IMG/VR virus record: IMGVR_UViG_2757320620_000001
Coordinates: 31,417 to 95,416 of that record
Length of the DNA: 64,000 nt
Source: a virus
Lineage: Duplodnaviria > Heunggongvirae > Uroviricota > Caudoviricetes
Direction: 5' to 3' (one strand)
Under the pieces are notes generated by a model. That model saw only the letters and a program-made list of their open reading frames with translations, did no database searches and was not told the DNA's origin. Shown here in pieces: positions 3,378 to 57,323 of the stretch (positions within the stretch are counted from its first letter, which is position 1; the number at the start of each line of letters is the position of its first letter). A program made the translations under genes and the position numbers.

Positions 3378-3776
3378 GGCTTAGAGACTCAGTTGACCGT
3401 GTCGATTACCAGTGATGCCACGATTCGACAGATGGTAAAACCCCAGTGATTTTCTCGCGCTTTGGTTACACAAAATTAACCTGCGCTCGCAAAAGTCGCA
3501 TAAGGTGGCTTATGGAACTTGCTGTCAACTCCCCAGATTTCACCTATTGAAAATTTTCTTTTCGCACCGTTTGCCCTCGAATCCTTGGTTTCGGGTGCGG
3601 CAAAATGGAATTGACTGCATTTTCTGAATCAATCGGTATTGACTTACAGGTTGAAACTTTGCCAAAAGAAATCACTGCAGCCCAACACCGATGTGCTATT
3701 TACTACAGCAGAAAACAAGAAAACGCTGTTAGTGACAAGTAAAACAGAGGTCTAGGAAGAAGGGTTATAAATTAAA
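3378..3776. promoter_or_regulatory. AT-rich divergent control region between the minus-strand RHH-repC unit and the + strand gene block
   Basis: About 400 bp with no convincing ORF and GC clearly below the window average. It contains TTGACT/TCAAT inverted elements (3611-3650) and the TTGACTTACAGG box also seen at 19146 and 38587. Confidence 0.4.
3626..3650. promoter_or_regulatory. motif variant AATCAA-TCGGTA-TTGACTTACAGG
   Basis: Inverted TCAAT/ATTGA halves with a longer spacer, in the divergent control region. Confidence 0.3.
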
Positions 3777-4178
3777 ATGTCCACTACTTATGTTCGTCCC
3801 TACGCTAACACGAAGGTTGCGCGTTTTCTCGACAAGCACATTGACCAGGTGGTCAACCGATCCCACCGCGAAATCGCTCAGGCGGCCGGCTGGACCCAGT
3901 CGAACATGGTCACGATGATCAAGAAGGGCGACGCCAAGTTGCCGCTCGATCGTGTTGCCGCGCTCGCCCGTGCGATTGACGTGGATCCGCTCTTTCTCTT
4001 CCGGATGGCCCTCGAGCAGTTCATGCCAGAGGATGCCGAAACCGCGCGGATGCTCGATTTCATCTGCACCGAAAACGAAGTCGAAATCCTCGGCGTGATC
4101 CGCGAGGCTTCCGGCAACAGCGATCCGAAGATCAACGATCGGCAGCGTGCTGCCGTTACCGAGGCCTTCGCGAAATAA
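3777..4178 (+). CDS. putative HTH (XRE/Cro-like) DNA-binding protein
   Basis: 133 aa. The segment HREIAQAAGWTQSNMVTMIKKGDAKLP looks like helix-turn-helix. It is the first gene of the + strand block, divergent from the RHH-repC unit. Confidence 0.45.
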   Translation: MSTTYVRPYANTKVARFLDKHIDQVVNRSHREIAQAAGWTQSNMVTMIKKGDAKLPLDRVAALARAIDVDPLFLFRMALEQFMPEDAETARMLDFICTENEVEILGVIREASGNSDPKINDRQRAAVTEAFAK

Positions 4179-4205
4179 CCGAGGGTTACCTCGGCTATAC
4201 CACCG

Positions 4206-4240
4206 GCGATCCGGCATAGGCACCGGATCGCTTTTTCTTT
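4206..4240 (+). terminator. rho-independent terminator (GCGATCCGG-loop-CCGGATCGC + TTTTTCTTT)
   Basis: Perfect 9 bp stem (4206-4214 / 4223-4231) followed by a T-run at 4232-4240, 28 bp after the stop of the HTH gene. Confidence 0.65.
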
Positions 4241-4252
4241 CGCTAGCTCCAT

Positions 4253-4269
4253 CAGTAAATATTGACTGA
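4253..4269. promoter_or_regulatory. recurrent palindromic motif copy (CAGTAAATATTGACTGA)
   Basis: 28 bp upstream of ORF 4298. Confidence 0.5.
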
Positions 4270-4297
4270 TCGGTGTTGACATGACAAAGGACGCATC

Positions 4298-4528
4298 ATG
4301 CAGAAACAGCAGCAGGCAATCACCAACTCCCACCTCGACGCCATCAAGGAGATTCCCTTCGATGTTGCCTGGGCTGAAGGTGCGAGATTGGTGAACGGCG
4401 TGCGAACAGACAAGGAAGGCGTGACGGTTCTCACCGGCACCCACCCGGAACACGGCAATATCCACATCATCATCCCTGCGGTCGGACAAGGGCTCCTGCT
4501 CTTCCCGTTTGTAGTCCAAGATTTTTGA
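4298..4528 (+). CDS. hypothetical protein (76 aa)
   Basis: ATG with an AAGGA RBS. It is preceded by a motif copy at 4253-4269. Confidence 0.4.
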   Translation: MQKQQQAITNSHLDAIKEIPFDVAWAEGARLVNGVRTDKEGVTVLTGTHPEHGNIHIIIPAVGQGLLLFPFVVQDF

Positions 4529-4535
4529 TGCGATA

Positions 4536-4560
4536 AATAATCAATCAAAATTGATTTAAC
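4536..4560. promoter_or_regulatory. motif variant (AATAATCAATCAAAATTGATTTAAC)
   Basis: 11 bp upstream of the cobT-like gene. Confidence 0.4.
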
Positions 4561-4570
4561 GGAGTGCGAC

Positions 4571-7081
4571 ATGAACAATGACATTGTGATCCTGCGCGAA
4601 GCGATCAAGAAGATCGTGCCGATGCTTGCTGGCAAAGGCCTGACCGTGACGCAAATGGGCACACAAGCCTATGTTCAGCCGCACCCCGTCACCGGTCTGC
4701 CCTGGCGCGTGAATATCCCTCTCCTGCCCGACAACGCCGAGCCGGAGTTTGTGTTCGCGATCCAGGGCTTCATCGACCATGAGGTCGCCCACGTCCTCTT
4801 CACCGACTTCCTGTTCAAGGCGCGCGACAAGTCGAAGCGCCTGCACAATTTGCATAACATCGTGGAAGACACGATGATCGAGCGGCTGATGAGCAACGAG
4901 TTCCCCGGCTCGAAGCGCAACATCTCCAAGCTCCGCGAATACTTCCTGCGCAACGTCACCGCGGCCGCGATCGCAAAGGCGCGCTCGAAGGAAGAAGAGT
5001 TCGGCTACCTGGTCGTCGTCTTGATGCGGGCGCTCGCCGGCCACGTCGAGTTCCAGGAATTCATGGACGACAACAATTACTGGGAGCATGAGCTGGTCAA
5101 GCCGTTCATGCAGCGCTTCCCGAAGGCGTCGCAAGACAAGATGCCGCTGCTTCAGACGACCGAGCAGACCTATGACATCGCGGTCGAGATCGAAGCCATT
5201 CTCTACCCGCCACCGCCGCCCGCCCCGCCGCAGCCGCCCGAGCCTGAAGAGCAGGACGATCAGGATCAGGGTGAAGGTTCTGATGACCAGGAGCCGTCGG
5301 AAGGCGAAGACGACAAGGATCATTCCGACGAACAGCAGACCGGCGACGGCGAAGGTGACGGTGAGCGCGAGCACACCGAAGACAACGACGATGCGTCGGG
5401 CGGTGAAGGCGAAAGCGAAGAGGAGAAGGATGACGATGCCGGCGACGGTGAAGACGAAGGTTCCGGCGCAGGCGAAGAAAAAGCCGACGATGAGGAAGGC
5501 GATGACGTCGCTCCCGGAACGAGCGCAGATGATGGCGACGACGATTCGGCTGACAAAGAAGATGCCAGCGACGAAGACAGCGATGGCTCGGCCGGTGAGC
5601 AGGACGACGCTGACGACGAGCCCCAGACCGGTAAGAGCTCCAGCTCGCCCAAAGAAGACGGCGATGATGATGCCGATGATCAGGGTGGTTCCGGCAACGG
5701 CGACGACGATGAGCATGACCAGGGCGAGGAAGGTTCTGATGAGCATGCTGACGCTGGGCAGGAAGCAGCGGATTCTGATGCAGAGGGTGAAGACCAGCCC
5801 GCTGAGATGGAAGATGGCGCCGATGAAAGCGGCGAGGCAGATCAGTCAGATGATGGCGAAAGCGGAAGCGACGCTGGAGGCTCTGGTTCCGATGATCAGT
5901 CCGAAGAAGATGGCGAAGACGACGAGGCGGGCGGCAACCCTCTGAACAACGTTGCCATCGAGGACGCCGGCAGCGATGAAGACGGTGAAGATGGCGAACC
6001 TGCCGAGGATGACGACACGCCGAGCGTCGAACTCGCCGGCATCGGCTACGATCCGAACCAGAACCCCTTCTCCGCAATGAGCGACGATGAGCTTGACGAG
6101 AAGGATATCTCGTCGGCGCTGGTCAAGATCATCGTCAAGGAAGCGATCTCGGCCTGCCGGGCTGCCGACTATTCGGTCTTCACCCGCGACTACGACATTA
6201 TCAAGCCGCTCGAGGTGCCGGAAAACTTCAGCAGCAAATATATCGTGGAGCTCGAGGAGCAGACCCGCGCGCTGACCGGCGTGATGCAGAAGGATATCGA
6301 GCGCATGATGGCCGCCCAGGCGCGCGTCTTCAATGTCGCCGGTCAACGCTCCGGTCGCCTCAACAGCGCCGGCCTGCATCGCCTGACGGCCGGCGACGCG
6401 CGCGTGTTCTCGCGCCGTGAGGAGATCCGCGCGAAAGATACGGCTGTGGCGCTTCTGTCCGACTGCTCCGGCTCGATGAAGGGTCGCCCAATGGCAACGG
6501 CGCTGTCGGCCGCATACGCGCTTGCCTCGGTGCTTGAGCGCTGCAATATCCCCTCCGAGTGCATGGGCTTCACGACCGCGCAATCATACGGCAGCGGCAG
6601 CGTCATGTCGGAAGACCGGGTCCGGCAGTTCAGCGCCGACCTTATGAATGAGACGCAGAAGTCCGGCGTGCGCTTCTCGCGCACCGTGCCGATCTACATG
6701 CCGATCTTCAAGGACTTCAACGAGCGCATCAACGCCGACGTCAAGAAGCGCTTCGCCTATCAGCGCAAGAACCAGCCCTTCATGGGCGCAAACGTCGACG
6801 GCGAGTCCCTCGAATACGCTGCGATGCGCCTGGCGCGCCGCAAGGAGAAGCGCAAGGTGATCATCGTTCTGTCCGACGGCTTTCCTGCCGGCGCCAGGAA
6901 CGACGACGAGCACCTGAAATACATGGTCGAGCGCCTGACCGGCATGGGTTACGACCTCGTCGGTATCGGCATCGAGTCCGACGCCGTCGAGCGCTTCTAC
7001 GACAACCATATCGTCCTGCAGTCGGTCGACGAGCTGCCGCGCGCCGTTATGGGCGAGCTGAAGAAAATCCTCATGAAATGA
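4571..7081 (+). CDS. CobT-like von Willebrand factor A domain protein with a roughly 270 aa Asp/Glu/Gly/Ser-rich linker
   Basis: N-terminal region resembles aerobic cobaltochelatase CobT. The C-terminal VWA/MIDAS motif D-x-S-x-S is present as LLSDCSGSMKG. A long acidic low-complexity insert occupies 5200-6060. Confidence 0.75.
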   Translation: MNNDIVILREAIKKIVPMLAGKGLTVTQMGTQAYVQPHPVTGLPWRVNIPLLPDNAEPEFVFAIQGFIDHEVAHVLFTDFLFKARDKSKRLHNLHNIVEDTMIERLMSNEFPGSKRNISKLREYFLRNVTAAAIAKARSKEEEFGYLVVVLMRALAGHVEFQEFMDDNNYWEHELVKPFMQRFPKASQDKMPLLQTTEQTYDIAVEIEAILYPPPPPAPPQPPEPEEQDDQDQGEGSDDQEPSEGEDDKDHSDEQQTGDGEGDGEREHTEDNDDASGGEGESEEEKDDDAGDGEDEGSGAGEEKADDEEGDDVAPGTSADDGDDDSADKEDASDEDSDGSAGEQDDADDEPQTGKSSSSPKEDGDDDADDQGGSGNGDDDEHDQGEEGSDEHADAGQEAADSDAEGEDQPAEMEDGADESGEADQSDDGESGSDAGGSGSDDQSEEDGEDDEAGGNPLNNVAIEDAGSDEDGEDGEPAEDDDTPSVELAGIGYDPNQNPFSAMSDDELDEKDISSALVKIIVKEAISACRAADYSVFTRDYDIIKPLEVPENFSSKYIVELEEQTRALTGVMQKDIERMMAAQARVFNVAGQRSGRLNSAGLHRLTAGDARVFSRREEIRAKDTAVALLSDCSGSMKGRPMATALSAAYALASVLERCNIPSECMGFTTAQSYGSGSVMSEDRVRQFSADLMNETQKSGVRFSRTVPIYMPIFKDFNERINADVKKRFAYQRKNQPFMGANVDGESLEYAAMRLARRKEKRKVIIVLSDGFPAGARNDDEHLKYMVERLTGMGYDLVGIGIESDAVERFYDNHIVLQSVDELPRAVMGELKKILMK

Positions 7082-7098
7082 TCGGGTAATGCAGTCGG

Positions 7099-7116
7099 TC
7101 AGTAAAAACTGATTGC
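7099..7116. promoter_or_regulatory. motif copy, upstream half of a bipartite module (TCAGTAAAAACTGATTGC)
   Basis: Followed by CATCCCATCGCTACGCTTGTTAG and the second copy at 7139-7158. Confidence 0.5.
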
Positions 7117-7138
7117 ATCCCATCGCTACGCTTGTTAG

Positions 7139-7158
7139 TAAGTAAATATTGATTGAGA
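7139..7158. promoter_or_regulatory. motif copy (TAAGTAAATATTGATTGA), upstream of the cobS-like gene
   Basis: 35 bp upstream of ATG 7193. Confidence 0.5.
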
Positions 7159-7192
7159 GCGACGATAGATCGCAAAATCGAACGGAGATAAA

Positions 7193-8413
7193 ATGAGCGA
7201 CGACATGATCACCTGCCAGATCGACGGCGGGAAAACACATTCCATCCGCATCTATCTCAGAGAGAACCATCCCGACTGGACGGTCGAGCGCTACAAGGAA
7301 GCCTATCCCGGCCAGCCGACGCTGTCTGAGCGTGGCAAGCGAGCCGCGCTGAAGGCCAAAGAGGCTGCTGATCGCAAGTCCGCTGCCGCATCCTTCCAGC
7401 CGGGCCAGGCTTTTGCCTTCGCAGAGCGCTCCCTCTCCGAAATCTTCGGCCTCGATGCGTCGACGGCGCTGTCATCGACCGGCAATCCGATCATGCTGCG
7501 CTGCCTGACCGAGCATCATCCCGAGGCTGACGCCTACGTCAACGACGTCGATGCCGACTACGTCTTCAATATCGACCTCGTCAAGAAAGTCTGCCTCGGC
7601 TTCGAGCTCGGCATGAACGTCTATCTCTGGGGCTATCACGGCACTGGCAAGACGACCGTGCTCGAGCAGTGCGCCGCCCGCACCGGCCGGCCGTTCTTGC
7701 GCGTCCAGCACACCGGCAACACCGAAGAGGCGCACATTCTCGGCCAGTATGTCGTCAAGTCCGTGCTCGTCGACGCTCAGGAGCTCGGCCCCGACGGCAA
7801 GCTCCACATCGTCAAGAAGCCGCAGACCGTCACCGAGTTTCAGTATGGTCCGCTGGCGATGGCGATGAAATACGGCATGGTCTACTGCGCTGACGAATAC
7901 GACTTCGCCATGCCGTCGGTGATCGCGCTCTATCAGCCGGTGCTCGAGGGCAAGCCGCTCGTCATCAAGGATGCGCCGATCGATCAGCGCGTCATTCATC
8001 CGCATCCCGACTTCCGCTTCGTTGCGACCGGCAACACCAACGGCGTCGGCGACGAGACGGGCCTCTACCAAGGCACGATGATCCAGAACGCAGCCTCCTA
8101 CTCGCGCTTCCACATCACCGAAGAGGTGAAATACATGGACGCCAAGCAGGAAAGCCTGGTGCTGCGCTCGAAGGCCGGGCTCGGCAAGGCCGACGCCGAC
8201 AAGTTCGTCAAGGTCGCGAATTCGATCCGCGAGAGCTTCACCAAGGGCGAAATGTCGATGACGATCTCGCCGCGCGAGCTGATCACGGCAGCGTCGCTGA
8301 CGATCGTCTTCGGTAACAATCCGACGCTCGGCTTCAAGCTCGCATTCGCCAACCGCTGCTCCCGCGTCGACCAGGTGACGGTCGAGCAAGTGCTGCAGAG
8401 GCACTTCGCATGA
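7193..8413 (+). CDS. CobS-like / MoxR-family AAA+ ATPase
   Basis: Walker A GYHGTGKTT and Walker B-like VYCADEYD. At 406 aa and immediately after the CobT-like VWA gene, this is the classical CobS/CobT pairing. Confidence 0.75.
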   Translation: MSDDMITCQIDGGKTHSIRIYLRENHPDWTVERYKEAYPGQPTLSERGKRAALKAKEAADRKSAAASFQPGQAFAFAERSLSEIFGLDASTALSSTGNPIMLRCLTEHHPEADAYVNDVDADYVFNIDLVKKVCLGFELGMNVYLWGYHGTGKTTVLEQCAARTGRPFLRVQHTGNTEEAHILGQYVVKSVLVDAQELGPDGKLHIVKKPQTVTEFQYGPLAMAMKYGMVYCADEYDFAMPSVIALYQPVLEGKPLVIKDAPIDQRVIHPHPDFRFVATGNTNGVGDETGLYQGTMIQNAASYSRFHITEEVKYMDAKQESLVLRSKAGLGKADADKFVKVANSIRESFTKGEMSMTISPRELITAASLTIVFGNNPTLGFKLAFANRCSRVDQVTVEQVLQRHFA

Positions 8414-9045
8414 CGATCGACCACAAGGAGAGCGTCGATCTGATCCGGCGTCTGTCCTGGTCGATCGCAAGAAAGCTTCATGGCAACGGCGCAACGTCGC
8501 TCAGCCATGAAGACGTCGAGCAGGAGCTTTGGCTCGTCTGGTGCCGCGCACGCGACACGTTCGATCCGACGCTCGGCGTGCCCTTCAAGGCCTATCTGAT
8601 CGAGGGCATTCGCCGGTCGAAGCTTGCGATCAATCGCCAGATGTTCAAGCGCATCGGCGAGGAGCGCGCCCAGCGGCTCGACGCCCCGGTTGGCAACGAC
8701 GGCGAAGGTGACAACCTGATCGACCTGATGCCCTCGAGCGCACCCTTGCCGGATGCGCAGGTGGATGAAGCCACCCACATCGCATGGGCGCTGAAGAAGC
8801 TGTCAGAGCGCACCGCGCTGTTCCTGAAGCTCCTCTACGAGCAGCCGCCCGAGCTCCTGGAGCAGATGCGTCTGCTGAAGGCGCGCGCTGAATACGCCAA
8901 GTCGATCGGCGCGCAGAACATTCTGATCAGCCACATAACGACGTCCTTCGTGTTTCGCCTGATGGACGCCGATCGCCCGGAACGCACGAAGATCCTCGCC
9001 GAGCTGCGCACGCTCTCCGAGAAGGTTCAAAGGACTGCCGCATGA
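8410..9045 (+). CDS. sigma-70 family (ECF-like) sigma factor
   Basis: Region-2-like segment DVEQELWLVWCRARDTFDPTLGVPFKAYLIEGIRRS. It has an ATGA overlap with the cobS-like gene. Region 4 is less clear. Confidence 0.5.
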   Translation: MTIDHKESVDLIRRLSWSIARKLHGNGATSLSHEDVEQELWLVWCRARDTFDPTLGVPFKAYLIEGIRRSKLAINRQMFKRIGEERAQRLDAPVGNDGEGDNLIDLMPSSAPLPDAQVDEATHIAWALKKLSERTALFLKLLYEQPPELLEQMRLLKARAEYAKSIGAQNILISHITTSFVFRLMDADRPERTKILAELRTLSEKVQRTAA

Positions 9046-9572
9046 ACGCATTTATTCCGTCATTCGCGCCTGGCTGCTTCGGCTCCGCACTCGCATTCGA
9101 GGAGACGGCGCCGGTGTGCGCGGTCTGCGTCTTTGCTGAGACCTGCCGGCCGCTGCACTTTACCAATCTCGAGATCCTGCGAGAGCGCGTCGGCGTGAAG
9201 GGCAAGGGCTCGAAGAAGGCCAAGAACCCGCTCGCTGAAAAGCCAGCGGCGCATCCCGCCGAGCTGACGGTGCCGAAGAAGGTCATGGCGCTGATCGAGA
9301 AGCTCGACAGCTCCAACCTGCGCGTGACCGAGAATTTCGCCAAAGGCGTCAACCCGTTCGCCGGCTCGTCGGGCTTCCTGAAGATCGCCGGGCATCTGCT
9401 GCTCAAGATGCGCCAGCCGCTCGATCGCCACACGCTCGCCTATGCCTTCACGACGAAGCTCGGCTGGACCGAGGGCACGGCTGACAGTCACGCGCGCATG
9501 ACGATCCAGGCGCTCACCCACATTGGCGCCGTCGACAATATCGACGGCCTGGTCACACTGAGGAGAGGCTGA
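9042..9572 (+). CDS. Cys-rich hypothetical protein, possible anti-sigma or zinc-binding partner
   Basis: N-terminal cluster C-x13-CAVC-x6-C. Translationally coupled (ATGA) to the sigma factor gene. Confidence 0.35.
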   Translation: MNAFIPSFAPGCFGSALAFEETAPVCAVCVFAETCRPLHFTNLEILRERVGVKGKGSKKAKNPLAEKPAAHPAELTVPKKVMALIEKLDSSNLRVTENFAKGVNPFAGSSGFLKIAGHLLLKMRQPLDRHTLAYAFTTKLGWTEGTADSHARMTIQALTHIGAVDNIDGLVTLRRG

Positions 9573-9838
9573 TGGCCGGCATTAGGGTGTTCTTCACCTG
9601 CGACTTCACCGAGCAAGGCCTGGTCGGCGCCGGCTACTTCGACATGGTGCTGGAGCATGAGCGCCGGCCCAGCCCCGATTTGCTGCAATATCTCGAGCGC
9701 ACCATTCAATCCGCCTGCCAGCACCCGGTGCTGGTTCACCGTTGGGAAATGACGCCCGCGGTCACCAAAAGCGACATTTATCTGACCCATTCCCAGGAGT
9801 TGCCTATCAATGCACGCCATTCTCGCAGCCCGAACTGA
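9572..9838 (+). CDS. hypothetical protein (88 aa)
   Basis: TGATG coupling to the upstream gene. It overlaps the dnaE start by 29 nt, so this is a weak call. Confidence 0.25.
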   Translation: MAGIRVFFTCDFTEQGLVGAGYFDMVLEHERRPSPDLLQYLERTIQSACQHPVLVHRWEMTPAVTKSDIYLTHSQELPINARHSRSPN

Positions 9839-13223: not shown

Positions 13224-13282
13224 CCACCCGCAAACCGCGCTGACAAGCGCTATTCTAGTGCAGCAGATCAAAGGAAACGATC

Positions 13283-13822: not shown

Positions 13823-13856
13823 ATTTTTCGTCATCCGACGATTTTTCGTCTATCTA

Positions 13857-13880
13857 ACAGTCAGTCAATATTGACTGACT
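13857..13880. promoter_or_regulatory. motif copy, perfect 18 bp palindrome TCAGTCAATATTGACTGA
   Basis: 20 bp upstream of ORF 13900. Confidence 0.55.
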
Positions 13881-13899
13881 TCAACCGCGGAGCCCTCGC

Positions 13900-14151: not shown

Positions 14152-14202
14152 AAAATCTTCGATTTTTCTAACGCAACCCGACCGAAAACTGTCTATTCTT
14201 AC

Positions 14203-14230
14203 TTAGCGATTTAGCGATTTCGCTAATAGC
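14203..14230. promoter_or_regulatory. second palindrome family: TTAGCGATTTAGCGATTTCGCTAATAGC, whose core TTAGCGATTTCGCTAA is a perfect 16 bp palindrome
   Basis: 55 bp upstream of the gp32-like SSB gene. A related perfect palindrome TCGCTAATTAGCGA lies at 18180-18193, upstream of the ASCH gene. Confidence 0.45.
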
Positions 14231-15226: not shown

Positions 15227-15230
15227 GTCG

Positions 15231-16530: not shown

Positions 16531-17065
16531 AGCAAACCCCAAGGGCGAGCCGAAGCGGGCGCTCGAGCAGGCCATCAGCAAGATCGGCAAGGCTTACGGC
16601 GATCTGCTGCGCGTGGCTGAAAAGCACGGCCACGAAATCGGCCAGACGGACTACGACAAAGCCCGGTTCTTCCTCGACAGCACGATCGGCAAGATCTGGG
16701 AGAAGATCGACGTGGTGCGCGACGTTGCCAAGGCGACGAACGGCGATTTCTCGCTCGACAGCATCGAGCTGCCGGAGACCGAAACCCTGCAGATCAGGAC
16801 GGCGACCGGTGTGAAGGAATGGCAGGTGCCGAAAGGAGCGCCCTTCGCGACGCCGGCTGTTATGCCCGTTGTGCCGGCCGGCCCGATCGACGCCTCGAGA
16901 ATGGACGGCCGATCCCTGGCGCAGGCCATTGGCGGGCGCCTCACAAAGCAGGCTAAGGCCGCGATTCCGCGTCCGACGCAGTCAGTCAATACTGACTTAG
17001 ACGACGACCTTGGCCCAACAGATACGTCATTTGAGGATGACGGTGCAGACTTCATCGACGAATAG
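16520..17065 (+). CDS. hypothetical protein with an acidic C-terminal tail (181 aa)
   Basis: Ends in DDDLGPTDTSFEDDGADFIDE, an SSB-tail-like acidic patch. A motif copy at 16981-17000 lies inside its 3' end. Confidence 0.45.
   Translation: MQTEANPKGEPKRALEQAISKIGKAYGDLLRVAEKHGHEIGQTDYDKARFFLDSTIGKIWEKIDVVRDVAKATNGDFSLDSIELPETETLQIRTATGVKEWQVPKGAPFATPAVMPVVPAGPIDASRMDGRSLAQAIGGRLTKQAKAAIPRPTQSVNTDLDDDLGPTDTSFEDDGADFIDE
16981..17000. promoter_or_regulatory. motif copy (GTCAGTCAATACTGACTTAG) inside the 3' end of ORF 16520..17065, 76 bp upstream of the recA-like gene
   Basis: Seen directly. Confidence 0.45.
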
Positions 17066-19084: not shown

Positions 19085-19103
19085 GTCAGTAAAAACTGAT
19101 TGC
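19085..19103. promoter_or_regulatory. motif copy, upstream half of a bipartite module (GTCAGTAAAAACTGATTGC)
   Basis: Same architecture as 7099-7158. Confidence 0.5.
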
Positions 19104-19134: not shown

Positions 19135-19155
19135 AGTCAGTCAATAATGACTTAC
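19135..19155. promoter_or_regulatory. motif copy (AGTCAGTCAATAATGACTTAC) followed by an AGGAG RBS
   Basis: 11 bp upstream of the small ORF at 19166. Confidence 0.5.
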
Positions 19156-24840: not shown

Positions 24841-24860
24841 AGTCAGTAAACATTGACTAA
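24841..24860. promoter_or_regulatory. motif copy (AGTCAGTAAACATTGACTAA)
   Basis: Upstream of ORF 24871. Confidence 0.5.
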
Positions 24861-25975: not shown

Positions 25976-25999
25976 GCAGTCAGTCAATATTGATTTAGC
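25976..25999. promoter_or_regulatory. motif copy (GCAGTCAGTCAATATTGATTTAGC) flanked by inverted CCTATGC/GCATAGG
   Basis: Upstream of nrdB. Confidence 0.5.
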
Positions 26000-28980: not shown

Positions 28981-29003
28981 TAGTAAGTAAATGTTGATTG
29001 AAC
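28981..29003. promoter_or_regulatory. motif copy (TAGTAAGTAAATGTTGATTGAAC) in the loop of an 11 bp hairpin (CGCTGCGCTTG/CAAGCGCAGCG), part of the third bipartite module
   Basis: The stretch 28974-29012 is 36/39 identical to 7120-7158. Confidence 0.5.
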
Positions 29004-29366: not shown

Positions 29367-29367
29367 T

Positions 29368-29386
29368 AAGTAAACTTTGATTGAGG
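29368..29386. promoter_or_regulatory. motif copy (AAGTAAACTTTGATTGAGG) immediately 3' of tRNA-Cys
   Basis: 8 bp upstream of ORF 29394. Confidence 0.45.
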
Positions 29387-32468: not shown

Positions 32469-32508
32469 GAGTGCTCAGTAAATATTGATTGAGCACTCTT
32501 TTTGTTTT
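32469..32508 (+). terminator. rho-independent terminator whose loop contains the recurrent motif (GAGTGCTCA-GTAAATATTGAT-TGAGCACTC + TTTTTGTTTT)
   Basis: Perfect 9 bp stem (32469-32477 / 32490-32498) followed by a T-run, 29 bp after the SPFH gene stop. Confidence 0.6.
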
Positions 32509-33858: not shown

Positions 33859-33880
33859 TTCAGTAAATATTGATTGATCG
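33859..33880. promoter_or_regulatory. motif copy (TTCAGTAAATATTGATTGATCG), upstream of the rIIA-like gene
   Basis: Preceded by the hairpin CACGCGCA/TGCGCGTG (33829-33853). Confidence 0.5.
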
Positions 33881-33909: not shown

Positions 33910-36273
33910 ATGGAAGTTTCGCAGGTAGCGGCGCTCGACACCCACGTAATCATCGGTGGTGGTGCGCCCGAGGCGTTCGGCATGGCCGATACCGCTGAAT
34001 TTTACGACGTCCTCTCCGACAACATCTACCGCGACAAGAAGCGCGCGGCGATGCGCGAGACCATTTGCAACGCCTGGGATGCGCATATCATGGTCGGTAA
34101 GACCGATGTGCCGGTCGAGATCACCGTCACCGACACCGAGATCGTCATTAAGGATTTCGGCCCAGGTATTCCGGATCATCTGATGCGGCCGATCTACTGC
34201 GTCTATGGCGCCTCGACGAAGGTGAAAGACGGCAAGCAGACAGGCGGTTTCGGTCTTGGCTCCAAATCGCCCTTCGCTGTCGGCGACCACTTCAACGTCG
34301 TCAACGAGCACGCCGGCTTCAAGACCGTATATGCCCTGTCGCGCGGTGGCGCCGCAACGCAAGGCAAGCCCGACATGCGCCCGATGGTGCGCGTGCCGTC
34401 CGTCAACACCGGCATTACCGTCACGATCCCGCTGAAGAACGTCAAAGATCGCCCCGAGTTCGAGGCCCATATCCGCGCAGTCGTGCGCCAGGGCGGCATG
34501 CTTGCCAATCTCAACGGTCAGCCGCTTTTCCGCAACGATTACACCGAGGCGCGCAAGACGGAATATTGCCTCATTCCGCAGACCGGTCTCTGGGAAGGCA
34601 AGGTCTATGTGCTTTACGGCACGGTGATCTATCCGCTGACAACCACCGACGAAGACTTGCTGGCGCTCGCCCACAAGGCCGGAAGCTATACCTGCCGCGA
34701 ATCCATTCTGCTGCTCTGCGCACCGCCGAACTCGATCGGTGTCACGCCCAGCCGCGAGTCCCTCTCCTATTCCGACACAACGACCGAGACGCTGACGCGC
34801 CTTTTGCAGAAGGCCTGTCGGCAGATCAACGCGGCGATCCCAGCCGCTATCAAGCGCGTTGCCCACGCCAGGCTCGAGAGATGGGGTGTAAAGGCGTTCG
34901 ATCGCAGCTTTGACGCCGAACGTCGAACCTGCGGCATTCTCTCGACGCCGGCGATGATCGCTGACCACGCGGTCGCCACCAACTCCGCTCACATGTCGGC
35001 CAAGCAGGCTAGACGCACGATGCTCAAGGTCGCCGCACCGATGTTCCGCGACGACCGGCGCTGGTATCGGCGTGCTGTTCACGAGCATTACTCCAACGAC
35101 GAGCTTAATTTCAGGCGCACTTCGATGCCGGCCATTCGCATTGCCTCGCAGATGGGCTTGCTGAAGGATCTGATGCTGTTCGATCTGCATCGCAACCGCC
35201 TGGCCCTGCCTGGCCCGAAGACCCAGCCGATCGCCAAATATCACCGGATCGGCCACGTTCACGCCGTTCTTTGTGTGGCGCGCAATCTGCGCGATCTGCG
35301 CCCGACGCTGAATGCCACCTCCGGAAGGTTCCGCAACGAGGAGCATAGCTACGTTCCCGGCGTCGTGATGCGTCAATGGACGGAAAAGAACCTCAAGGCC
35401 CTGCGCGAACTCTGCTCGCGGTTCAAGATTGAGCTGGTCGAGTTCGATTACGAGGAAGAGAAGGAGCGTCGCGCGAGCCAGGCGAAGCGGGTGAAGACCG
35501 AGGAGAAATACCTGACCCTCGAGGACTACATCAAAAGCGGCTATCGCGCCGACCCCACCTGCAATGAGCCGGCCTTCTACATGATGACCTGGCAGCGCGA
35601 CGAGATCCCGCGCACGCCGTTCGACACTCATCTTGTGAAGGCGATCGTCGAGAAGTTCCCCAACACGGCGCTGATCACGACGAAAGCCCAGGAGGAGAAA
35701 TTCAAGAAGCTCGGTATCCGCAACCTGGCCGAAGTCGCGGCCGCACGCCTGGTCGAGCTGACGAAGCTGCGCGAGGTCGTCTACGGCGAGCTCATCCGGC
35801 ACGACCGCATCGCCGCAGACAAAGACCGCTTCTATCACGGCTCCCTTGCCGACGCCGTGCTGAAGCTCGCCAAACTCGACGTGCGTATCGCCAAGATGCT
35901 CTTCCCGGACAGGTCGACGCCGGGCGAGGCCCACAGGGAGGCCGCACTGCTTTGGGACTTCCTCGTCAACGCCCAGTCGCTCTCCGAGGAGACTACAGCG
36001 ATCGTCAAAGCGGCGAAGAAGGGATTGCGCCGAGCCTGCGCCGAATTGTTCAAGCCGCTCACTGCGGATGAAGTGGACCGGCGCTTTGCATACCTCGAAG
36101 TTCTGCGTGGCGCCAACATCATCGGCTCCATGAACTACAGATCAACCTCGAAGGAGGCTGAGAACTTGATCGAGGTGATCAAGATTCTCCAGCGCCGCAG
36201 CAGTAAATCAAAATTGATTGCACACAACACCCAGGCCGCGAAGGTCACAACCGCCCACAAGGAGGCAGCATGA
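33910..36273 (+). CDS. rIIA: rIIA-like protein with an N-terminal GHKL (HATPase_c) ATPase domain
   Basis: Bergerat-fold motifs: N box ETICNAWDA, G1 box KDFGPGIP, G2 box TGGFGLGSKS. About 787 aa, immediately followed by and coupled (ATGA) to a clear rIIB homolog. Confidence 0.65.
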   Translation: MEVSQVAALDTHVIIGGGAPEAFGMADTAEFYDVLSDNIYRDKKRAAMRETICNAWDAHIMVGKTDVPVEITVTDTEIVIKDFGPGIPDHLMRPIYCVYGASTKVKDGKQTGGFGLGSKSPFAVGDHFNVVNEHAGFKTVYALSRGGAATQGKPDMRPMVRVPSVNTGITVTIPLKNVKDRPEFEAHIRAVVRQGGMLANLNGQPLFRNDYTEARKTEYCLIPQTGLWEGKVYVLYGTVIYPLTTTDEDLLALAHKAGSYTCRESILLLCAPPNSIGVTPSRESLSYSDTTTETLTRLLQKACRQINAAIPAAIKRVAHARLERWGVKAFDRSFDAERRTCGILSTPAMIADHAVATNSAHMSAKQARRTMLKVAAPMFRDDRRWYRRAVHEHYSNDELNFRRTSMPAIRIASQMGLLKDLMLFDLHRNRLALPGPKTQPIAKYHRIGHVHAVLCVARNLRDLRPTLNATSGRFRNEEHSYVPGVVMRQWTEKNLKALRELCSRFKIELVEFDYEEEKERRASQAKRVKTEEKYLTLEDYIKSGYRADPTCNEPAFYMMTWQRDEIPRTPFDTHLVKAIVEKFPNTALITTKAQEEKFKKLGIRNLAEVAAARLVELTKLREVVYGELIRHDRIAADKDRFYHGSLADAVLKLAKLDVRIAKMLFPDRSTPGEAHREAALLWDFLVNAQSLSEETTAIVKAAKKGLRRACAELFKPLTADEVDRRFAYLEVLRGANIIGSMNYRSTSKEAENLIEVIKILQRRSSKSKLIAHNTQAAKVTTAHKEAA
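36201..36223. promoter_or_regulatory. motif copy (CAGTAAATCAAAATTGATTGCAC) inside the 3' end of the rIIA-like CDS, upstream of rIIB
   Basis: Seen directly. Confidence 0.4.
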
Positions 36274-38571: not shown

Positions 38572-38598
38572 TATAGTCAGTAAACATTGATTTACAGG
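38572..38598. promoter_or_regulatory. motif copy (TATAGTCAGTAAACATTGATTTACAGG) plus an AGGAG RBS
   Basis: Upstream of ORF 38607. Confidence 0.5.
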
Positions 38599-41918: not shown

Positions 41919-41952
41919 TGACCGACGGGAATAATTCTGTTCTCGTCGGTCA
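41919..41952 (+). terminator. hairpin (TGACCGACG/CGTCGGTCA, 9 bp) after the acidic protein gene, overlapping a motif copy
   Basis: Stem 41919-41927 / 41944-41952, followed by the A/T-rich ATCATTATT. No classic U-run. Confidence 0.35.
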
Positions 41953-41968
41953 ATCATTATTGACTTAC
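41948..41968. promoter_or_regulatory. motif copy (GGTCAATCATTATTGACTTAC)
   Basis: Upstream of the lipoprotein gene at 42022. Confidence 0.45.
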
Positions 41969-46930: not shown

Positions 46931-46952
46931 GGTCAGTAAAAATTGATTGACC
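46931..46952. promoter_or_regulatory. motif copy (GGTCAGTAAAAATTGATTGACC), extended palindrome
   Basis: Upstream of ORF 46999. Confidence 0.5.
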
Positions 46953-47587: not shown

Positions 47588-47612
47588 GATAAATAAACAT
47601 TGATTGATTATC
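47588..47612. promoter_or_regulatory. motif copy (GATAAATAAACATTGATTGATTATC)
   Basis: Upstream of the alarmone hydrolase gene. Confidence 0.45.
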
Positions 47613-50065: not shown

Positions 50066-50086
50066 ATAAGTCAACATTGATTGAGG
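50066..50086. promoter_or_regulatory. motif copy (ATAAGTCAACATTGATTGAGG)
   Basis: Upstream of ORF 50095. Preceded by the palindrome GTCGCATCGTGCGAC. Confidence 0.45.
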
Positions 50087-54725: not shown

Positions 54726-54919
54726 CCAAGCAAGTAAAGAACGAAATTGCGGTGCTCCGGCTCGCCCAGGCGCTCAAGGATTTCGACGACTGCAATCCTG
54801 ACGTCGGTATGGGGCCGTCCAACGACTATTTCATTGAGCAGGCTGCCCGACAGCTCAGCCTCGAAACCGCGGACTATGACGCCAAGCACGTCGAGGATCT
54901 GATGAGGGCGGCGCGGTAA
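54722..54919 (+). CDS. hypothetical protein (65 aa)
   Basis: ATGA-coupled. Confidence 0.35.
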   Translation: MTKQVKNEIAVLRLAQALKDFDDCNPDVGMGPSNDYFIEQAARQLSLETADYDAKHVEDLMRAAR

Positions 54920-55161
54920 TGGGCGTCTGGCGCTATTGCGAGTGTGGTCAAGGCACCTCCTTCCCTGACGCAGACGAGCACATACAGGGCTACCAGCGCT
55001 GCGCGGCATGTAACGCCGAGGTGCCGGTTAACGAAGACGAGCGCCGGCGTTTCTTCCTCGAAATGCACGAGCGCCTGCAGAAGGTCGAGCACCAGGTCGC
55101 CATGCTGATCAAAGCGACCAAGCTGCTCGCGCAGCCGCACAGGAGGGCAAACCAATCATGA
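54919..55161 (+). CDS. small zinc-ribbon protein (CECG ... CAAC)
   Basis: TAATG-coupled. Confidence 0.35.
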   Translation: MGVWRYCECGQGTSFPDADEHIQGYQRCAACNAEVPVNEDERRRFFLEMHERLQKVEHQVAMLIKATKLLAQPHRRANQS

Positions 55162-55343
55162 CGACCTACACCAACATGGGGCGGTTCGAGAACGACAGCG
55201 AGGCCACAGTTAAATTCATGTGCGACGGCTGCTCGCACGAGTATGTCGCCATCTGCCGCGAATGCTACGTTGAAAACCACCCCTACAGCTATTACGCGAC
55301 GAAATGCGCCAAATGCGGCACCTACAATCAAGAGGTTTCCTGA
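55158..55343 (+). CDS. small zinc-ribbon protein (CDGC ... CREC ... CAKCG)
   Basis: ATGA-coupled. 61 aa with three Cys pairs. Confidence 0.4.
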   Translation: MTTYTNMGRFENDSEATVKFMCDGCSHEYVAICRECYVENHPYSYYATKCAKCGTYNQEVS

Positions 55344-55538
55344 CCACCGATAATCAATAGTTATCGGAAGCGAGCCACGCCGCCCGCGAATCCCATGGCT
55401 GACGGAAGAGACGAGTCCAGCCGCTTCCGTTAACGTTTCATTAATCCTAAATATCAAGGTCTTATTAACCCTTCGGTTTTCGCCGATGGACTCCTTTTCG
55501 CCATGGGTATATCCATGGGAACGAAAGGAGAACGCGCA

Positions 55539-55811
55539 ATGAGAGATAGACCCAATTTTCAGGGCGACTGGTTTGTGCATGCGATCGATATCCAAGGACC
55601 GCACGACGAGAAGCCTCAGAAGGTAGGCGGGATAGATAACGCCGGCGCTGCCCAGGCCGCCTTCAAATACCTGGTGAGCTCCGAGCCGCCCGACCGGATC
55701 ATCACACTGCGCGACGGCGCCCGCGTCATGGACCGACAGAATGGACGTGCCGTCTGGGAGCCAACGATATCGCGCTGGGTCGAGGCGTCGGCCGAGCGAA
55801 ATGATCCGTAA
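55539..55811 (+). CDS. hypothetical protein (90 aa)
   Basis: GAAAGGAGAACGCGCA RBS before ATG 55539. Confidence 0.4.
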   Translation: MRDRPNFQGDWFVHAIDIQGPHDEKPQKVGGIDNAGAAQAAFKYLVSSEPPDRIITLRDGARVMDRQNGRAVWEPTISRWVEASAERNDP

Positions 55812-56246
55812 TCTTCCACCCGCTTTCCAAAGCGCAACGTGCGATAACAAATCATCGACAGAGAGAAAGCAGAAAGCGAGCAAACAGTGAGATCGCCATG
55901 TGAACGATGAGGGTAGCTACCTCGACCGCAAATAGCTCGGCTCCGATTAAGGCCGTCACGCTCATACGGTAGGCAGACCGCTAAATAGGAGATGGGCAAG
56001 AGGCTCTACCTCCCGGCTGCTGAGCCCGATAGTCGCCCACTCGTCAGAGATCCGGGGTGAAACCAACCTTCTGTATGCCGCAAACCAACGGCCCCGGCGC
56101 GCGCATTGTCACAGTGAAGCAACCGCTTGATTGCTCACGATCCACTCCTAGACCCGTATCCCGCGGCCTTCCCTGCCTGACACCCGGCATATGTGCAGTG
56201 ATGACGGTGCGGAGTGTGATCAATGAACAATCGATGGAGACGTGAG

Positions 56247-56438
56247 ATGGCAATTCTCGAGACCGAGGCCTCGCTGACCGAGGAGCTGAAAGCCTGGTGC
56301 GCCGACCAGAACCTCGAATGGCTGGAAGCCGAGGAGCTTCTGCTTAATCCGGATCTCTCCGCTACGCAGCGGCGATATCTCTCCAGCTTCCTTCTTCGCT
56401 GGGAAGCGGTCATGGCAGACGAGGACGCCGAGGCCTGA
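56247..56438 (+). CDS. hypothetical protein (63 aa)
   Basis: Weak call. Sits in a 1 kb stretch with little coding signal. Confidence 0.25.
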   Translation: MAILETEASLTEELKAWCADQNLEWLEAEELLLNPDLSATQRRYLSSFLLRWEAVMADEDAEA

Positions 56439-56799
56439 TATAAATCGGCGATTCGAGTGGTGGAAGCAGTAAGTGCCGGAGCCAGCCCGGCGCGCCGATG
56501 AAGATGGGCAACATCGGCATTGGCGAGTGCCTCGCCCTCGAAACGGAGGATGTCTATGTGGTGGATACCATTTAGCGTCACGTTCACGATAAGGAAAACC
56601 CGCACGAGCTGGCAAGCTACCGTGCGGGTCCAATTCCTGGCGTAAGCGTAAACGTTGGCAGGAGGTTCGCGCTTCCTGCCAACACTCCTGCAATATAGCC
56701 CGGCCGGCCATGGGCTTCAAGTGCCTCTCGCTGCCTGCCGCAATCCGCGTTGCGACATGCGAAAACAGATCATCGAAACGCAAGCGAGAGAGCGAAACG

Positions 56800-57246
56800 A
56801 TGATACAGCAGCCGCAAATCCACATCGAGCGCAACGCGGAATATTACGACGCGGGCTACAACGATCCAAGTCATTTCAGGGTCATAATCACGGTTCCGGG
56901 CGAGATCGGTCAGGTCATCGGCATGGCGTGCGTCGACTCGGCGAACAACGGCTACGGCGTTTTCAGCACGATCGGCGGTGAAATCGTCGACATCTACGGC
57001 AGCGAGTTCGAAAACGAGGAGCTGCAGTGGGCGCATTTCAGCTTCGGCAACGCCAATGCACGCATCAGCCGCAACGATGACGGCTCTTACGAGCTGAGCT
57101 TGGATTGTCAAAAACACGGCGAATACGAGGATGACTATCTCGACTATCTGGATTTCGGCTGGCGCATGGATAACGCGCTGCCGGATCTCTTCTGGATCGA
57201 GCCGGCGAACCTCATCCGCAAGTTGATCGCAGCAACAAAGCACTAA
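56800..57246 (+). CDS. hypothetical protein (148 aa)
   Basis: ATG 56800 after a GAGAGAGCGAAACG stretch. Confidence 0.4.
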   Translation: MIQQPQIHIERNAEYYDAGYNDPSHFRVIITVPGEIGQVIGMACVDSANNGYGVFSTIGGEIVDIYGSEFENEELQWAHFSFGNANARISRNDDGSYELSLDCQKHGEYEDDYLDYLDFGWRMDNALPDLFWIEPANLIRKLIAATKH

Positions 57247-57302
57247 GGCAAGTAGAGTGGCGCTTCTGGCGCCTTGTTTGCCGGCCGCTCCCATGGCGCT
57301 CT

Positions 57303-57323
57303 GGTAAATCAATATTTACTTAG
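57303..57323. promoter_or_regulatory. motif copy in reverse orientation (GGTAAATCAATATTTACTTAG; minus-strand reading TAAGTAAATATTGATTTACC)
   Basis: Between ORFs 56800..57246 and 57373..57642. Confidence 0.4.

Follow-up and report, generated by a model that had tools for sequence, protein, structure and literature searches.

What does a short palindrome do when it recurs, gene start after gene start, along the genome of one phage? The window, the whole stretch of 64,000 nucleotides that we analyzed, belongs to Rhizobium phage RHEph10 (record positions 31417-95416). We read its palindrome as the operator of a phage-encoded dimeric regulator, most likely one that represses the lytic genes of a plasmid-prophage, and we give this reading a probability of roughly one half.

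The repeated unit is an 18-bp dyad, T[C/A]A[G/A]T[C/A]AAT-ATT[G/T]A[C/T]T[G/T]A, with a 7-N4-7 architecture, and not a unit that may be as short as 14 bp, as the first-pass annotation had it. Allowing up to two mismatches, the window has 12 matches to AGTCAATATTGACT where 0.06 are expected, and the degenerate dyad TMARTMAAWATTKAYTKA is found at 22 distinct positions where 0.02 are expected. None of 100 dinucleotide-preserving shuffles of the window comes near the observed dyad count. The recurrence is real, and the positions, given here without strand, agree with those listed at first reading.

3629..3646, copy TCAATCGGTATTGACTTA where the RHH-repC operon and the XRE gene gp041 diverge, the gp041 ATG 130 nt on
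4252..4269, copy TCAGTAAATATTGACTGA, gp042 28 nt downstream; a terminator-like hairpin (4205-4232) ends 19 nt upstream
4541..4558, copy TCAATCAAAATTGATTTA, cobT ATG 12 nt downstream with the SD between
7099..7116, degenerate copy TCAGTAAAAACTGATTGC followed by aTCCC, the upstream one of a pair before cobS
7139..7156, copy TAAGTAAATATTGATTGA, cobS 36 nt downstream in a transcription unit that includes the sigma gene
13861..13878, perfect palindrome TCAGTCAATATTGACTGA, gp050 21 nt downstream; CTATCT stands 5 nt upstream; 13828-13841 holds a weak hairpin and T-run
16982..16999, copy within the gp054 3′ end, recA 76 nt downstream; kept in N1_10
19086..19103, degenerate copy TCAGTAAAAACTGATTGC followed by gTCCC, the upstream one of a pair
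19137..19154, copy TCAGTCAATAATGACTTA, gp058 11 nt downstream, caggag SD directly 3′
24843..24860, copy TCAGTAAACATTGACTAA, gp068 10 nt downstream
25980..25997, copy before nrdB, flanked by inverted repeats gcctatgc (25970-25977) and gcataggc (25998-26005)
28984..29001, copy in the loop of a stem gctgcgcttg / caagcgcagc (28970-29014), tRNA-Cys downstream
29367..29384, copy that begins 4 nt past tRNA-Cys (29292-29363) and ends 9 nt before gp171, GGAG directly 3′
32475..32492, copy in the loop of a terminator-like hairpin gagtgc / gcactc with T-run (32469-32508), gp164 16 nt downstream
33860..33877, copy with rIIA 32 nt downstream, TCCC and CTAT upstream
36204..36221, copy within the rIIA 3′ end, rIIB 48 nt downstream
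38577..38594, copy with gp158 12 nt downstream, ATTATA 1 nt upstream, caggag 3′
41950..41967, copy with gp151 54 nt downstream
46933..46950, copy with gp140 48 nt downstream
47590..47607, copy with the HD phosphohydrolase gp139 16 nt downstream
50067..50084, copy with gp132 10 nt downstream
57305..57322, copy with gp112 50 nt downstream; right arm TTTACT-N17-TACAAT

The perfect palindrome and the two copies inside CDS 3′ ends (16982 and 36204) had been noted correctly. A position weight matrix scan of the whole RHEph10 genome finds about 39 distinct sites, 32 of them entirely within non-coding DNA, itself only 8% of the genome, which bears out the suspected intergenic preference; of intergenic gaps of 60-119 bp, only 20 of 35 have a dyad. 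The sites do lie next to gene starts, at gaps of 9-130 nt to the next start codon rather than the 10-80 bp first proposed, with one exception (392 nt, ahead of a tRNA). The element had also been assigned to the early and DNA-metabolism module, but about 10 copies outside the window precede structural, lysis and packaging genes.

The degeneracy of the dyad is mirror-symmetric, and mirrored positions vary independently, without covariation: variable positions that face each other across the dyad agree in the Watson-Crick sense less often than independence predicts (13 vs. 19.0, 15 vs. 19.1, and 19 vs. 22.8), C-T and A-G mismatches between the arms are frequent, and only 1 of 39 sites is perfect. 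As predicted RNA hairpins, the sites reach a median of -1.3 kcal/mol, and the perfect palindrome reaches -7.7; 14 of the 39 sites are essentially unfolded as RNA, and an Rfam search of the window reports only a tRNA. Independent mirrored positions and weak hairpins suit a dimeric DNA-binding protein and do not suit a hairpin. Such a protein is the best fit, and the description of the palindrome as a phage regulon's dominant cis element, with dyad symmetry, stands.

Where are the sites with respect to promoters? They adjoin or overlap promoter-like elements in several registers. Counted from the palindrome start, -10-like hexamers are most frequent at offsets -8/-5 and +16 and -35-like hexamers at -8/-7, and only about a third to half of the sites have a recognizable -10 or -35 in a fixed register. 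In B1VFA, 8 of 12 plus-strand GCGYTATAA elements have the palindrome 2-4 nt downstream, and in SSU5 it occupies the spacer of predicted TTGAAA-N17-TATGAT/TATCAT promoters. T-runs and terminator-like hairpins lie directly upstream of sites or surround them. All these promoter positions are putative, placed by resemblance to consensus. At the other end, 10 of the 22 window copies end 9-17 nt before an ATG with the SD between. With promoter-like elements in several registers and so many sites this close to an ATG, a -35 role for the TTGACT half cannot hold generally.

Comparison with related phages, which had been suggested as a check, finds the same architecture in relatives. RHph_N1_10 keeps 37 of the 39 RHEph10 sites; identity between the two is 92-100% at arm positions and 70-87% in the flanks, and the palindrome is their most conserved intergenic island. 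The 3629 copy has an equivalent-position copy in all four other alphaproteobacterial lineages compared (N1_10, B1VFA, pLM21S1, and Shinella), each with a conserved TTGACTTA right arm, and the 7099 copy reads TAAGTAAATATTGATTGC in N1_10. The palindrome is common to a large phage-plasmid family that includes Salmonella phage SSU5. With lineage-specific sequence, the 7-N4-7 architecture is present in B1VFA, X66, pLM21S1, plasmids of Shinella, Methylobacterium, and Acinetobacter, and Salmonella SSU5. B1VFA and X66 have TAAGTAA-N4-TTACTTA, with near-invariant arms and a centre that varies freely between orthologous sites; Methylobacterium pAMS5a has 51 sites of TCAGTCA-GCGC-TGACTGA; SSU5 has 17 sites where 0.5 are expected; and the Acinetobacter plasmid has 11 within 50 kb. 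X66 and N1_10 share one host species and yet have different palindrome types, which argues that the factor is phage-encoded. Nickie and BUCTxx99 are lytic-looking relatives without detected plasmid genes, a comparison that covers one lineage fully and one in part: nickie, with 38 proteins in common with RHEph10, lacks the palindrome family and has no RepC, ParA, XRE, or sigma that we could find, and BUCTxx99, judged on its first 50 kb, has no palindrome there.

How would such an operator work? Its two inverted 7-bp arms about a 4-bp centre would be read as double-stranded DNA by the dimer. The operators would lie on or directly beside the predicted core promoters of about 40 transcription units in a plasmid-prophage of roughly 115 kb, and therefore one protein could control nearly all phage genes together. 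Bound regulator would most likely block RNA polymerase, and the lytic genes would stay silent while RepC and ParA maintain the plasmid. The upstream regions of repC and parA are free of the palindrome. Relatives are known as resident plasmids of about 115 kb (PMC12509600, PMC4447125). RHEph10 itself is a plaque-forming isolate, and the papers that we read give no demonstration of its lysogeny; we infer both the repressive direction and the link to lysogeny.

Functionally, such a regulon would resemble the C1 operators of P1 or the stoperators of L5. P1 is also a plasmid prophage, in which one repressor binds many genome-scattered operators beside promoters of lytic functions. The C1 operators are asymmetric 17-mers, roughly 15-20 of them. 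RHEph10 sites differ in being palindromic, in numbering about 40, and in also preceding structural genes, whereas in P1 the control of late genes is indirect, by way of Lpa. C1 binding to its operators is necessary for P1 lysogeny (PMC8198154). In L5 and cluster A phages, more than 20 copies of one short motif, in promoters and short intergenic spaces genome-wide, silence the prophage (PMC9283540), much as many copies of one short motif are dispersed between the genes of RHEph10. The L5 sites, however, are asymmetric 13-mers that a two-domain monomer binds and that work only when oriented one way with respect to transcription (PMC9283540), whereas the dyad symmetry in RHEph10 implies dimeric binding that does not depend on orientation. 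The 434 and lambda Cro/CI operators and the C-protein boxes, which dimeric XRE-HTH proteins bind, likewise have inverted half-sites spaced by about one helical turn, with a weakly specified or unspecified centre as in B-type copies, but there the operators number 3-6 and lie in a single immunity region, not about 40 genome-wide.

Which protein binds? Three candidates had been named.

3777..4178, + strand, gp041, XRE-type HTH protein, candidate binder; weak HTH_3 match
3171..3377, - strand, gp040, small RHH-like regulator upstream of repC; PHROG 'transcriptional regulator' match
8410..9045, + strand, gp045, sigma-70-family protein; Sigma70_r2 match

Gp041, whose profile weakly matches C.BclI and 434 Cro, is syntenic across all alphaproteobacterial lineages, and we detect no homologue in SSU5, the Acinetobacter fragment, or nickie. 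Gp040, with a 29% identical counterpart in B1VFA, is the weaker candidate binder and more likely a regulator of repC. Both keep their places as candidates, and the sigma protein is the least likely of the three. We found no repressor gene that co-occurs with the motif in every lineage: the XRE protein is undetected in SSU5, and gp085 is present in motif-less phages.

A different possibility, which we consider unlikely, is that the dyad is the activator site of phage-specific middle or late promoters, where the dimer would take the place of the -35 contact and bring in host RNA polymerase, in the manner of P1 Lpa; at sites that lie at +1 it might also repress, as a dual switch. P1 late promoters, which are activated rather than repressed, carry a 9-bp inverted repeat at -22 that occurs at late genes only. 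Contrary to repression, class-L copies of the RHEph10 dyad match this geometry, centred near -20 and directly upstream of the -10, in place of or beside a -35. The structural-gene copies end in TA followed by CAAT or CCAT, giving TACAAT or TACCAT; both Rhizobium groups show an enrichment of TAnnnT at offset +16, and TAnnnT is frequent in SSU5; and a 'TTA ccattgg' tail is common to RHEph10 and SSU5. Lpa is required by the P1 late genes (PMC8198154). Unlike the P1 element, however, the RHEph10 palindrome is also found at early and DNA-metabolism genes, against their ribosome-binding sites, and the 10 copies closest to an ATG, with the SD directly 3′, leave no room for a -10 and a start. It also follows -10-like boxes, such as CGCTATAA in B-type phages. 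Good -35-like hexamers stand immediately before several copies (TTGACG, TTGGCA, and TTGAAA in SSU5), so an activator should be unneeded there. Moreover, nickie has homologous lytic genes expressed without such an element, and the regulator's own transcription unit would require the regulator.

It is less probable still that the dyads are mainly loading or centromere-like sites of the ParB/Srx-family protein gp085, serving DNA organization, partition, or long-range silencing in the manner of KorB, Noc, or parS. Plasmid global regulons of this kind are those of RK2 KorB (ParB family, 12 palindromic OB sites) and pSM19035 omega (RHH, heptad repeats), with sites dispersed at plasmid-backbone promoters and bound by a partition-related protein. 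Gp085, a candidate binder only, combines a Noc/ParB-like N-domain (E about 1e-11) with a conserved C-terminal segment, KTHxxxR[FY]KV and then two helices, that is RHH-like in a structural model (pLDDT 80). Its gene belongs to the core of the whole supergroup, every motif-bearing lineage tested has it, and its own promoter region holds the palindrome in RHEph10, N1_10, B1VFA, X66, and pAMS5a; in SSU5 that region offers only a degenerate copy, with the left arm intact and three mismatches in the right arm. But site sequence and spacing differ from those of KorB and omega, we find no canonical ParB HTH domain, and Pfam does not confirm the RHH fold. The palindromes are tied to gene starts and do not cluster near the par locus. 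Moreover, nickie and BUCTxx99 retain gp085, yet in the sequence examined neither has a palindrome, even in the helicase/parB-like divergent region.

We are more doubtful again that the dyad is a promoter read by gp045, or that its TTGAYT half is a host sigma-70 -35, as the first-pass annotation had allowed. TTGACT and TTGATT do resemble a -35, the sigma gene is found in all alphaproteobacterial lineages, and an E. coli-type scan finds no plus-strand promoters in window positions 1-20000. By its sequence, the right arm at 57305 could be a -35, conserved in function in N1_10, which has TATACT where RHEph10 has TACAAT. But a -10 at the right distance occurs at isolated copies such as this one, and at the SD-abutting copies the geometry fails, a start 30 nt downstream of TTGAYT being impossible. 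B-type arms (TAAGTAA) are unlike a -35, with a freely varying centre. Dyad symmetry, which a sigma factor does not require, is conserved across lineages, even in B1VFA and X66, where the sigma is 34-36% identical; SSU5 has the motif without a detectable sigma or XRE homologue. The sigma gene's own transcription unit also carries a site, a bootstrap problem. Gp045 is an unlikely reader of the palindrome, and it may instead read lineage-specific promoter-like elements beside it.

Least credible of all is an RNA element, whether a 5′-UTR or intercistronic hairpin for mRNA stability, processing, or translational control, or the top of an intrinsic terminator: 7-bp arms about a 4-nt centre have hairpin geometry, many copies adjoin an SD, and some lie within longer GC-rich stems followed by T-runs, but covariation and stable folding are both missing, and some copies lie in predicted promoter spacers, which would be untranscribed.

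We therefore return to the operator of a phage-encoded dimeric regulator. If this reading is true, the phage regulator would switch the viral genes on or off jointly, through the dyad.

The genome of Rhizobium phage RHEph10 (JX483881 / NC_034248, 115,042 bp) has 100% identity to the window, and it was assembled whole, with gene positions taken from the RefSeq CDS table (coding share 91.8%); record positions refer to this full genome, in which window base 1 is base 31417. A search for AGTCAATATTGACT allowing up to 2 mismatches gives 12 matches in the window versus 0.06 expected. The true repeat unit according to a position weight matrix (PWM) is an 18-bp dyad, T-M-A-R-T-M-A-A-T followed by its mirror A-T-T-K-A-Y-T-K-A, and not a unit of 14-18 bp as in the first-pass annotation. 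With up to 2 mismatches the dyad occurs at 22 positions in the window (0.02 expected), the same 22 copies which that annotation had counted. Over the whole genome there are about 39 distinct sites. The near-exclusive intergenic placement proposed for them holds, as 32 of the 39 lie wholly within non-coding DNA, which is only 8% of the genome. Not all gaps carry a palindrome, only 20 of the 35 that are 60-119 bp long. The regions upstream of repC and parA have none. The restriction to the early/DNA-metabolism module has to be abandoned, because genes for packaging, head, tail and lysis that lie beyond the window have about 10 sites in front of them. The observation of a repeated palindrome is confirmed and extended: it is 18 bp long, genome-wide and conserved in the family.

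Several annotation details surfaced in the same genome. The tRNA-Cys gene (window 29292-29363, Rfam 56 bits) has palindrome copies on both sides, one 290 nt before the tRNA and within a long stem, the other (29367-29384) beginning 4 nt past the tRNA 3′ end and adjoining the Shine-Dalgarno (SD) sequence of the next ORF. Genes gp034, gp096 and gp097 have starts or strands unlike those annotated in the relative RHph_N1_10 (N1_10), and when the N1_10 annotation is applied, their palindrome copies turn intergenic. The linear RHEph10 record seems to begin within the capsid gene, since gp001 (record 33-461) aligns at 95% with the last 142 aa of the major capsid protein of N1_10; gp073 (record 114340-114885) is at the opposite end of the record, and both genes are outside the window. 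The palindrome-free region holds a large ORF, gp110 (window 58020-61574, 1184 aa), 73% identical to a protein of the relative B1VFA and without a homologue in N1_10 or in X66, a further relative. It is an accessory gene common to otherwise divergent lineages.

The degeneracy of the PWM mirrors across the dyad, C/A with G/T and A/G with T/C. Among the 39 sites, Watson-Crick agreement at three variable mirror pairs is 13, 15 and 19, versus 19.0, 19.1 and 22.8 expected under independence, and every variable mirror pair is at or below its expectation. Only 1 of the 39 sites is a perfect palindrome. Folded as RNA, the 18-mers have a median energy of -1.3 kcal/mol, with 14 of 39 above -1 and the perfect palindrome at -7.7, and an Rfam search of the window returns tRNA-Cys as the sole match. 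On the missing covariation and the weak folding energies we reject an RNA hairpin, a terminator or a processing site, and they imply selection on two half-site sequences rather than on pairing. Independent half-sites with symmetric degeneracy are the signature that a dimeric protein bound to duplex DNA would leave. The earlier proposal of a regulon under a dimeric regulator gains support from the mirrored degeneracy, from the half-sites that do not covary, and from conservation across the family.

N1_10 is about 84% identical to RHEph10 and has 40 palindrome sites, with an orthologous palindrome for 37 of the 39 RHEph10 sites. Per-position identity between the two genomes is 0.92-1.00 in the 7-bp arms, 0.79-0.87 in the 4-bp centre and 0.70-0.87 in the flanks, and the drift within palindromes stays inside the degenerate consensus. 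GC-rich stems flanking palindromes are preserved through compensatory changes, for instance at record 104328. Farther away, the 7-N4-7 architecture is retained in six lineages. B1VFA and X66, with DNA about 70% identical to RHEph10 and a sigma protein 34-36% identical, have no RHEph10-type (R-type) sequence and about 39 copies each of TAAGTAA-N4-TTACTTA (B-type), with near-invariant arms and a centre that varies freely among orthologous sites. The B-type motif is also found in the plasmid pLM21S1 and in a Shinella plasmid. The Methylobacterium plasmid pAMS5a has 51 sites of TCAGTCA-GCGC/GCAC-TGACTGA. The Salmonella phage-plasmid SSU5, syntenic with RHEph10 and with 39 proteins in common, has 17 copies of TA[A/G]GTAA-N4-TTAC[T/C]TA (0.5 expected), and an Acinetobacter baumannii plasmid-prophage has 11 copies of T[T/A]AGTAAGCGCTTACT[A/T]A in 50 kb. 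X66 and N1_10 have a common host, R. phaseoli, and different motif types, so we reject a host-encoded reader of the site in favour of a phage-encoded one.

An exact scan for the R-type motif in genome contigs gives, among the matches listed, only single chance matches in AT-rich genomes, and the same scan of viral contigs (IMG/VR) gives multi-copy matches on UViGs of about 116 kb. The 18-mer recurs many times on four of this size (2751185820, 2802428818, 3300049460_000134 and 2821091796), which are probably resident R-type plasmid prophages. We found no description of the motif in papers mentioning RHEph10, B1VFA, pLM21S1 or SSU5.

Another family of palindromes in SSU5, GAAAACAA-N-TTGTTTWA, has 20 sites at up to 3 mismatches (30447, 42727, 82466, 88368, 92757 and 94523 among them). 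At most of them a GATAAT-like box lies some 11 nt upstream and an SD follows closely, that of small early genes, parA, helicase or cobT. This is probably a second operator set.

We infer the promoter context of the palindromes from their surroundings. At 10 of the 22 window copies, only 9-17 nt, which contain the SD, separate the end of the palindrome from the start codon; there, the transcript must begin inside or upstream of the palindrome, and the TTGAYT half is excluded as a -35. Hexamers resembling a -10 or a -35 are enriched 3-10-fold at fixed registers, at about a third to a half of sites. A positional scan has peaks for TAnnnT at offsets -5 and +16, for CTATAA at -8 and for -35-like hexamers at -8/-7, and no TAnnnT peak at the offset needed if TTGAYT were a -35 (a -10 16-18 bp downstream). 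T-runs are enriched upstream of palindromes, and for several window copies a terminator-like hairpin either encloses the copy in its loop or ends just before it. The predicted arrangements are the following:

Class A: the palindrome follows a -10-like box at a distance of 0-5 nt, and the predicted start is within its left arm
Class L: the palindrome directly follows a -35-like hexamer, and its last TA opens a -10
Right arm as -35: few sites, for example window 57305

Class L is exemplified by TTGACG/TTGGCA-N17-TACCAT in RHEph10, CTTGCA-N18-TACAAT in B1VFA and TTGAAA-N17-TATGAT/TATCAT in SSU5. Where a terminator hairpin follows (record 473, 2751 and 7575), the predicted start falls inside the hairpin, and then only read-through transcripts would terminate. 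By strict criteria, class A or L covers 8 of 39 sites in RHEph10 and 15 of 39 in B1VFA (about 20-40%), so we do not claim a promoter at every site. A scan for E. coli-type promoters in window 1-20000, uninformative for this host, reports no plus-strand promoter and terminators near chance.

At B-type sites, the class A box CGCTATAA is strongly enriched upstream (12 of 39, p ~1e-13) and is strand-specific, with 8 of 12 plus-strand copies in B1VFA followed by a palindrome. A -35-like block that differs by lineage stands at a fixed distance before it: in Rhizobium/Sinorhizobium this is GCAnTCCC, in Methylobacterium TGAAACGCCG. A composite promoter-like cassette of about 45 bp precedes many palindromes in B1VFA, pLM21S1 and pAMS5a (minus strand), and is laid out as a lineage-specific upstream block (CGCTCA..ACCTGA..GCAnTCCC in the rhizobial elements, TGAAACGCCG in Methylobacterium), 13-15 nt, and CGCTATAA. 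The block may be the sequence read by the phage sigma factor.

The mechanism that best accommodates these data is the operator regulon of a plasmid-prophage, to which we give a probability of roughly one half. One dimeric regulator would occlude promoters from -35, spacer and +1 positions. In function, its nearest known counterparts are phage-plasmid P1, with its dispersed C1 operators (PMC8198154), and mycobacteriophage L5, with its operator/stoperator sites (PMC9283540). L5 stoperators are asymmetric, their orientation follows the direction of transcription, and their repressor is monomeric (PMC9283540). Like them, the RHEph10 sites are present in many copies (~39) in short intergenic spaces, and RHEph10 relatives are resident plasmids; unlike them, the RHEph10 sites are palindromic, and they do not fit the asymmetry, the orientation dependence or the monomeric repressor that define stoperators. 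Their architecture is that of a classic dimer operator, as in 434 and the C-proteins, here in about 40 copies.

Alternatively, the palindrome could be an activator site. The Lpa-dependent late promoters of P1, found at late genes only, carry, immediately ahead of the -10, an inverted repeat whose centre is near -22. Class L and the structural-gene copies of RHEph10 match this geometry, and for that reason the activator stays a live alternative. Unlike the P1 late promoters, the RHEph10 palindrome is also at early/DNA-metabolism genes, downstream of -10-like boxes, and an activator working from -35, spacer and +1 positions is harder to envisage than an occluding repressor.

Lifestyle also favours the operator regulon. 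The motif-bearing relatives exist as real plasmids, among them pRlX6, with 93-94.5% identity to B1VFA (PMC12509600), and the plasmid-like prophage pLM21S1 (PMC4447125); a plasmid of Pararhizobium has 80% identity to window 3000-10900, and many 110-120-kb rhizobial contigs carry homologues of the ParB/Srx-like protein gp085. The lytic-looking Pseudomonas phage nickie has 38 proteins in common with RHEph10, gp085 and gp083 among them, and no homologue of RepC, ParA, the ParG-like protein, the RHH, XRE or sigma proteins. The palindrome family is missing from nickie, also from the divergent region between helicase and parB-like genes, and no other palindrome is abundant there. Stenotrophomonas phage BUCTxx99, in its first 50 kb, follows the same pattern, and the palindrome family was not found there. 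Expression of these homologous lytic genes therefore does not need the element, a point in favour of a lysogeny-type operator and against an obligatory lytic promoter element; it draws on two lineages, nickie examined fully and BUCTxx99 partly.

None of the candidate binders gp041, gp085, gp040 (a small RHH-like regulator) and gp091 (ParG-like) co-occurs perfectly with the motif. The XRE-type protein gp041 keeps a syntenic place, heading the rightward operon, in every alphaproteobacterial lineage, the start of its recognition helix is lineage-specific, and its profile weakly resembles C.BclI and 434 Cro, with no match in SSU5, the Acinetobacter fragment or nickie. As for gp085 (record 106243-106989, outside the window), it is a core gene and hallmark of a supergroup of ~105-120-kb phages and phage-plasmids of Rhizobium, Pseudomonas, Stenotrophomonas, Xanthomonas, Salmonella, Klebsiella, Escherichia and Acinetobacter (993 plasmids, 39 phages and 626 database proteins). 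Besides a Noc/ParB-like N-domain, the protein has an acidic linker and, C-terminally, a conserved segment of beta-alpha-alpha type. That segment, KTHxxxR[FY]KV-helix-helix, is RHH-like in an AlphaFold model built with database homologues (pLDDT 80), and Pfam gives no confirmation of an RHH there. When its beta-strand is compared with the arm sequences, HTxxR[FY]KV is nearly invariant and motif types are few, which is too little variation for co-variation.

A broader reading, which we regard as improbable, takes in the whole SSU5-related supergroup of alpha- and gammaproteobacteria, the AMR-carrying plasmid prophages of Klebsiella, E. coli, Salmonella and Acinetobacter among them, and sees the 7-N4-7 dyad (core AGTnA-N4-TnACT) as its master cis-switch. 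One conserved factor, possibly gp085 as a CTP-dependent clamp, would keep early/middle promoters silent where the site is at +1 and license late promoters where it is in the spacer, coupling plasmid maintenance to the lysis-lysogeny decision. Sites of the ParB/KorB type (parS or OB) would be expected wherever gp085 occurs, an expectation that fails in nickie and in the first 50 kb of BUCTxx99, since both phages have gp085 homologues and the palindrome family is lacking there. The sigma-70-family protein gp045, whose distribution is identical to that of gp041, had been proposed to read TTGAYT as the -35 of a phage-sigma promoter; this fails on geometry, 10 of 22 copies being too near the ATG (the copy at 57305 is the exception), and on the lack of a detected homologue in SSU5 despite its 17 motif copies.

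The motif TCGCTAA / CGCTAAA-N2-TTTAGCG is found upstream of parA, and gp091 is more plausibly the reader of this second motif than of the main palindrome. As the repeat aaTCGCTAAwt it lies at window 14203-14226 and 18180-18193 and at record 98427, 101142, 103205 and 109382, in gaps without the main palindrome, partly as inverted repeats (TTAGCGAttTCGCTAA; CGCTAAAtcTTTAGCG before parA, record 103205). Its half-sites number 21 versus 9.4 expected, 14 of them non-coding, with a strand bias of 17 plus to 4 minus. It may be a ParG-like/partition operator or the site of another regulator.

For RHEph10, the palindrome marks probable starts of transcription units and mends a few gene starts. If this is merely an ordinary multi-operator immunity system, its value is chiefly descriptive. 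Lysogeny control in SSU5-type phage-plasmids is poorly known, and a 2024 review gives regulators for P1, N15, VP882 and GIL01 and none for the SSU5 group (PMC11652158). SSU5-type elements account for about a thousand sequenced plasmids of ~110 kb in Klebsiella, E. coli, Salmonella, Yersinia, Acinetobacter and many rhizobia. One conserved 18-bp site at most phage promoters is a concrete handle on this large and clinically relevant supergroup: it predicts the operator set, defines the regulon, and makes the switch, and the search for its repressor or activator, testable.
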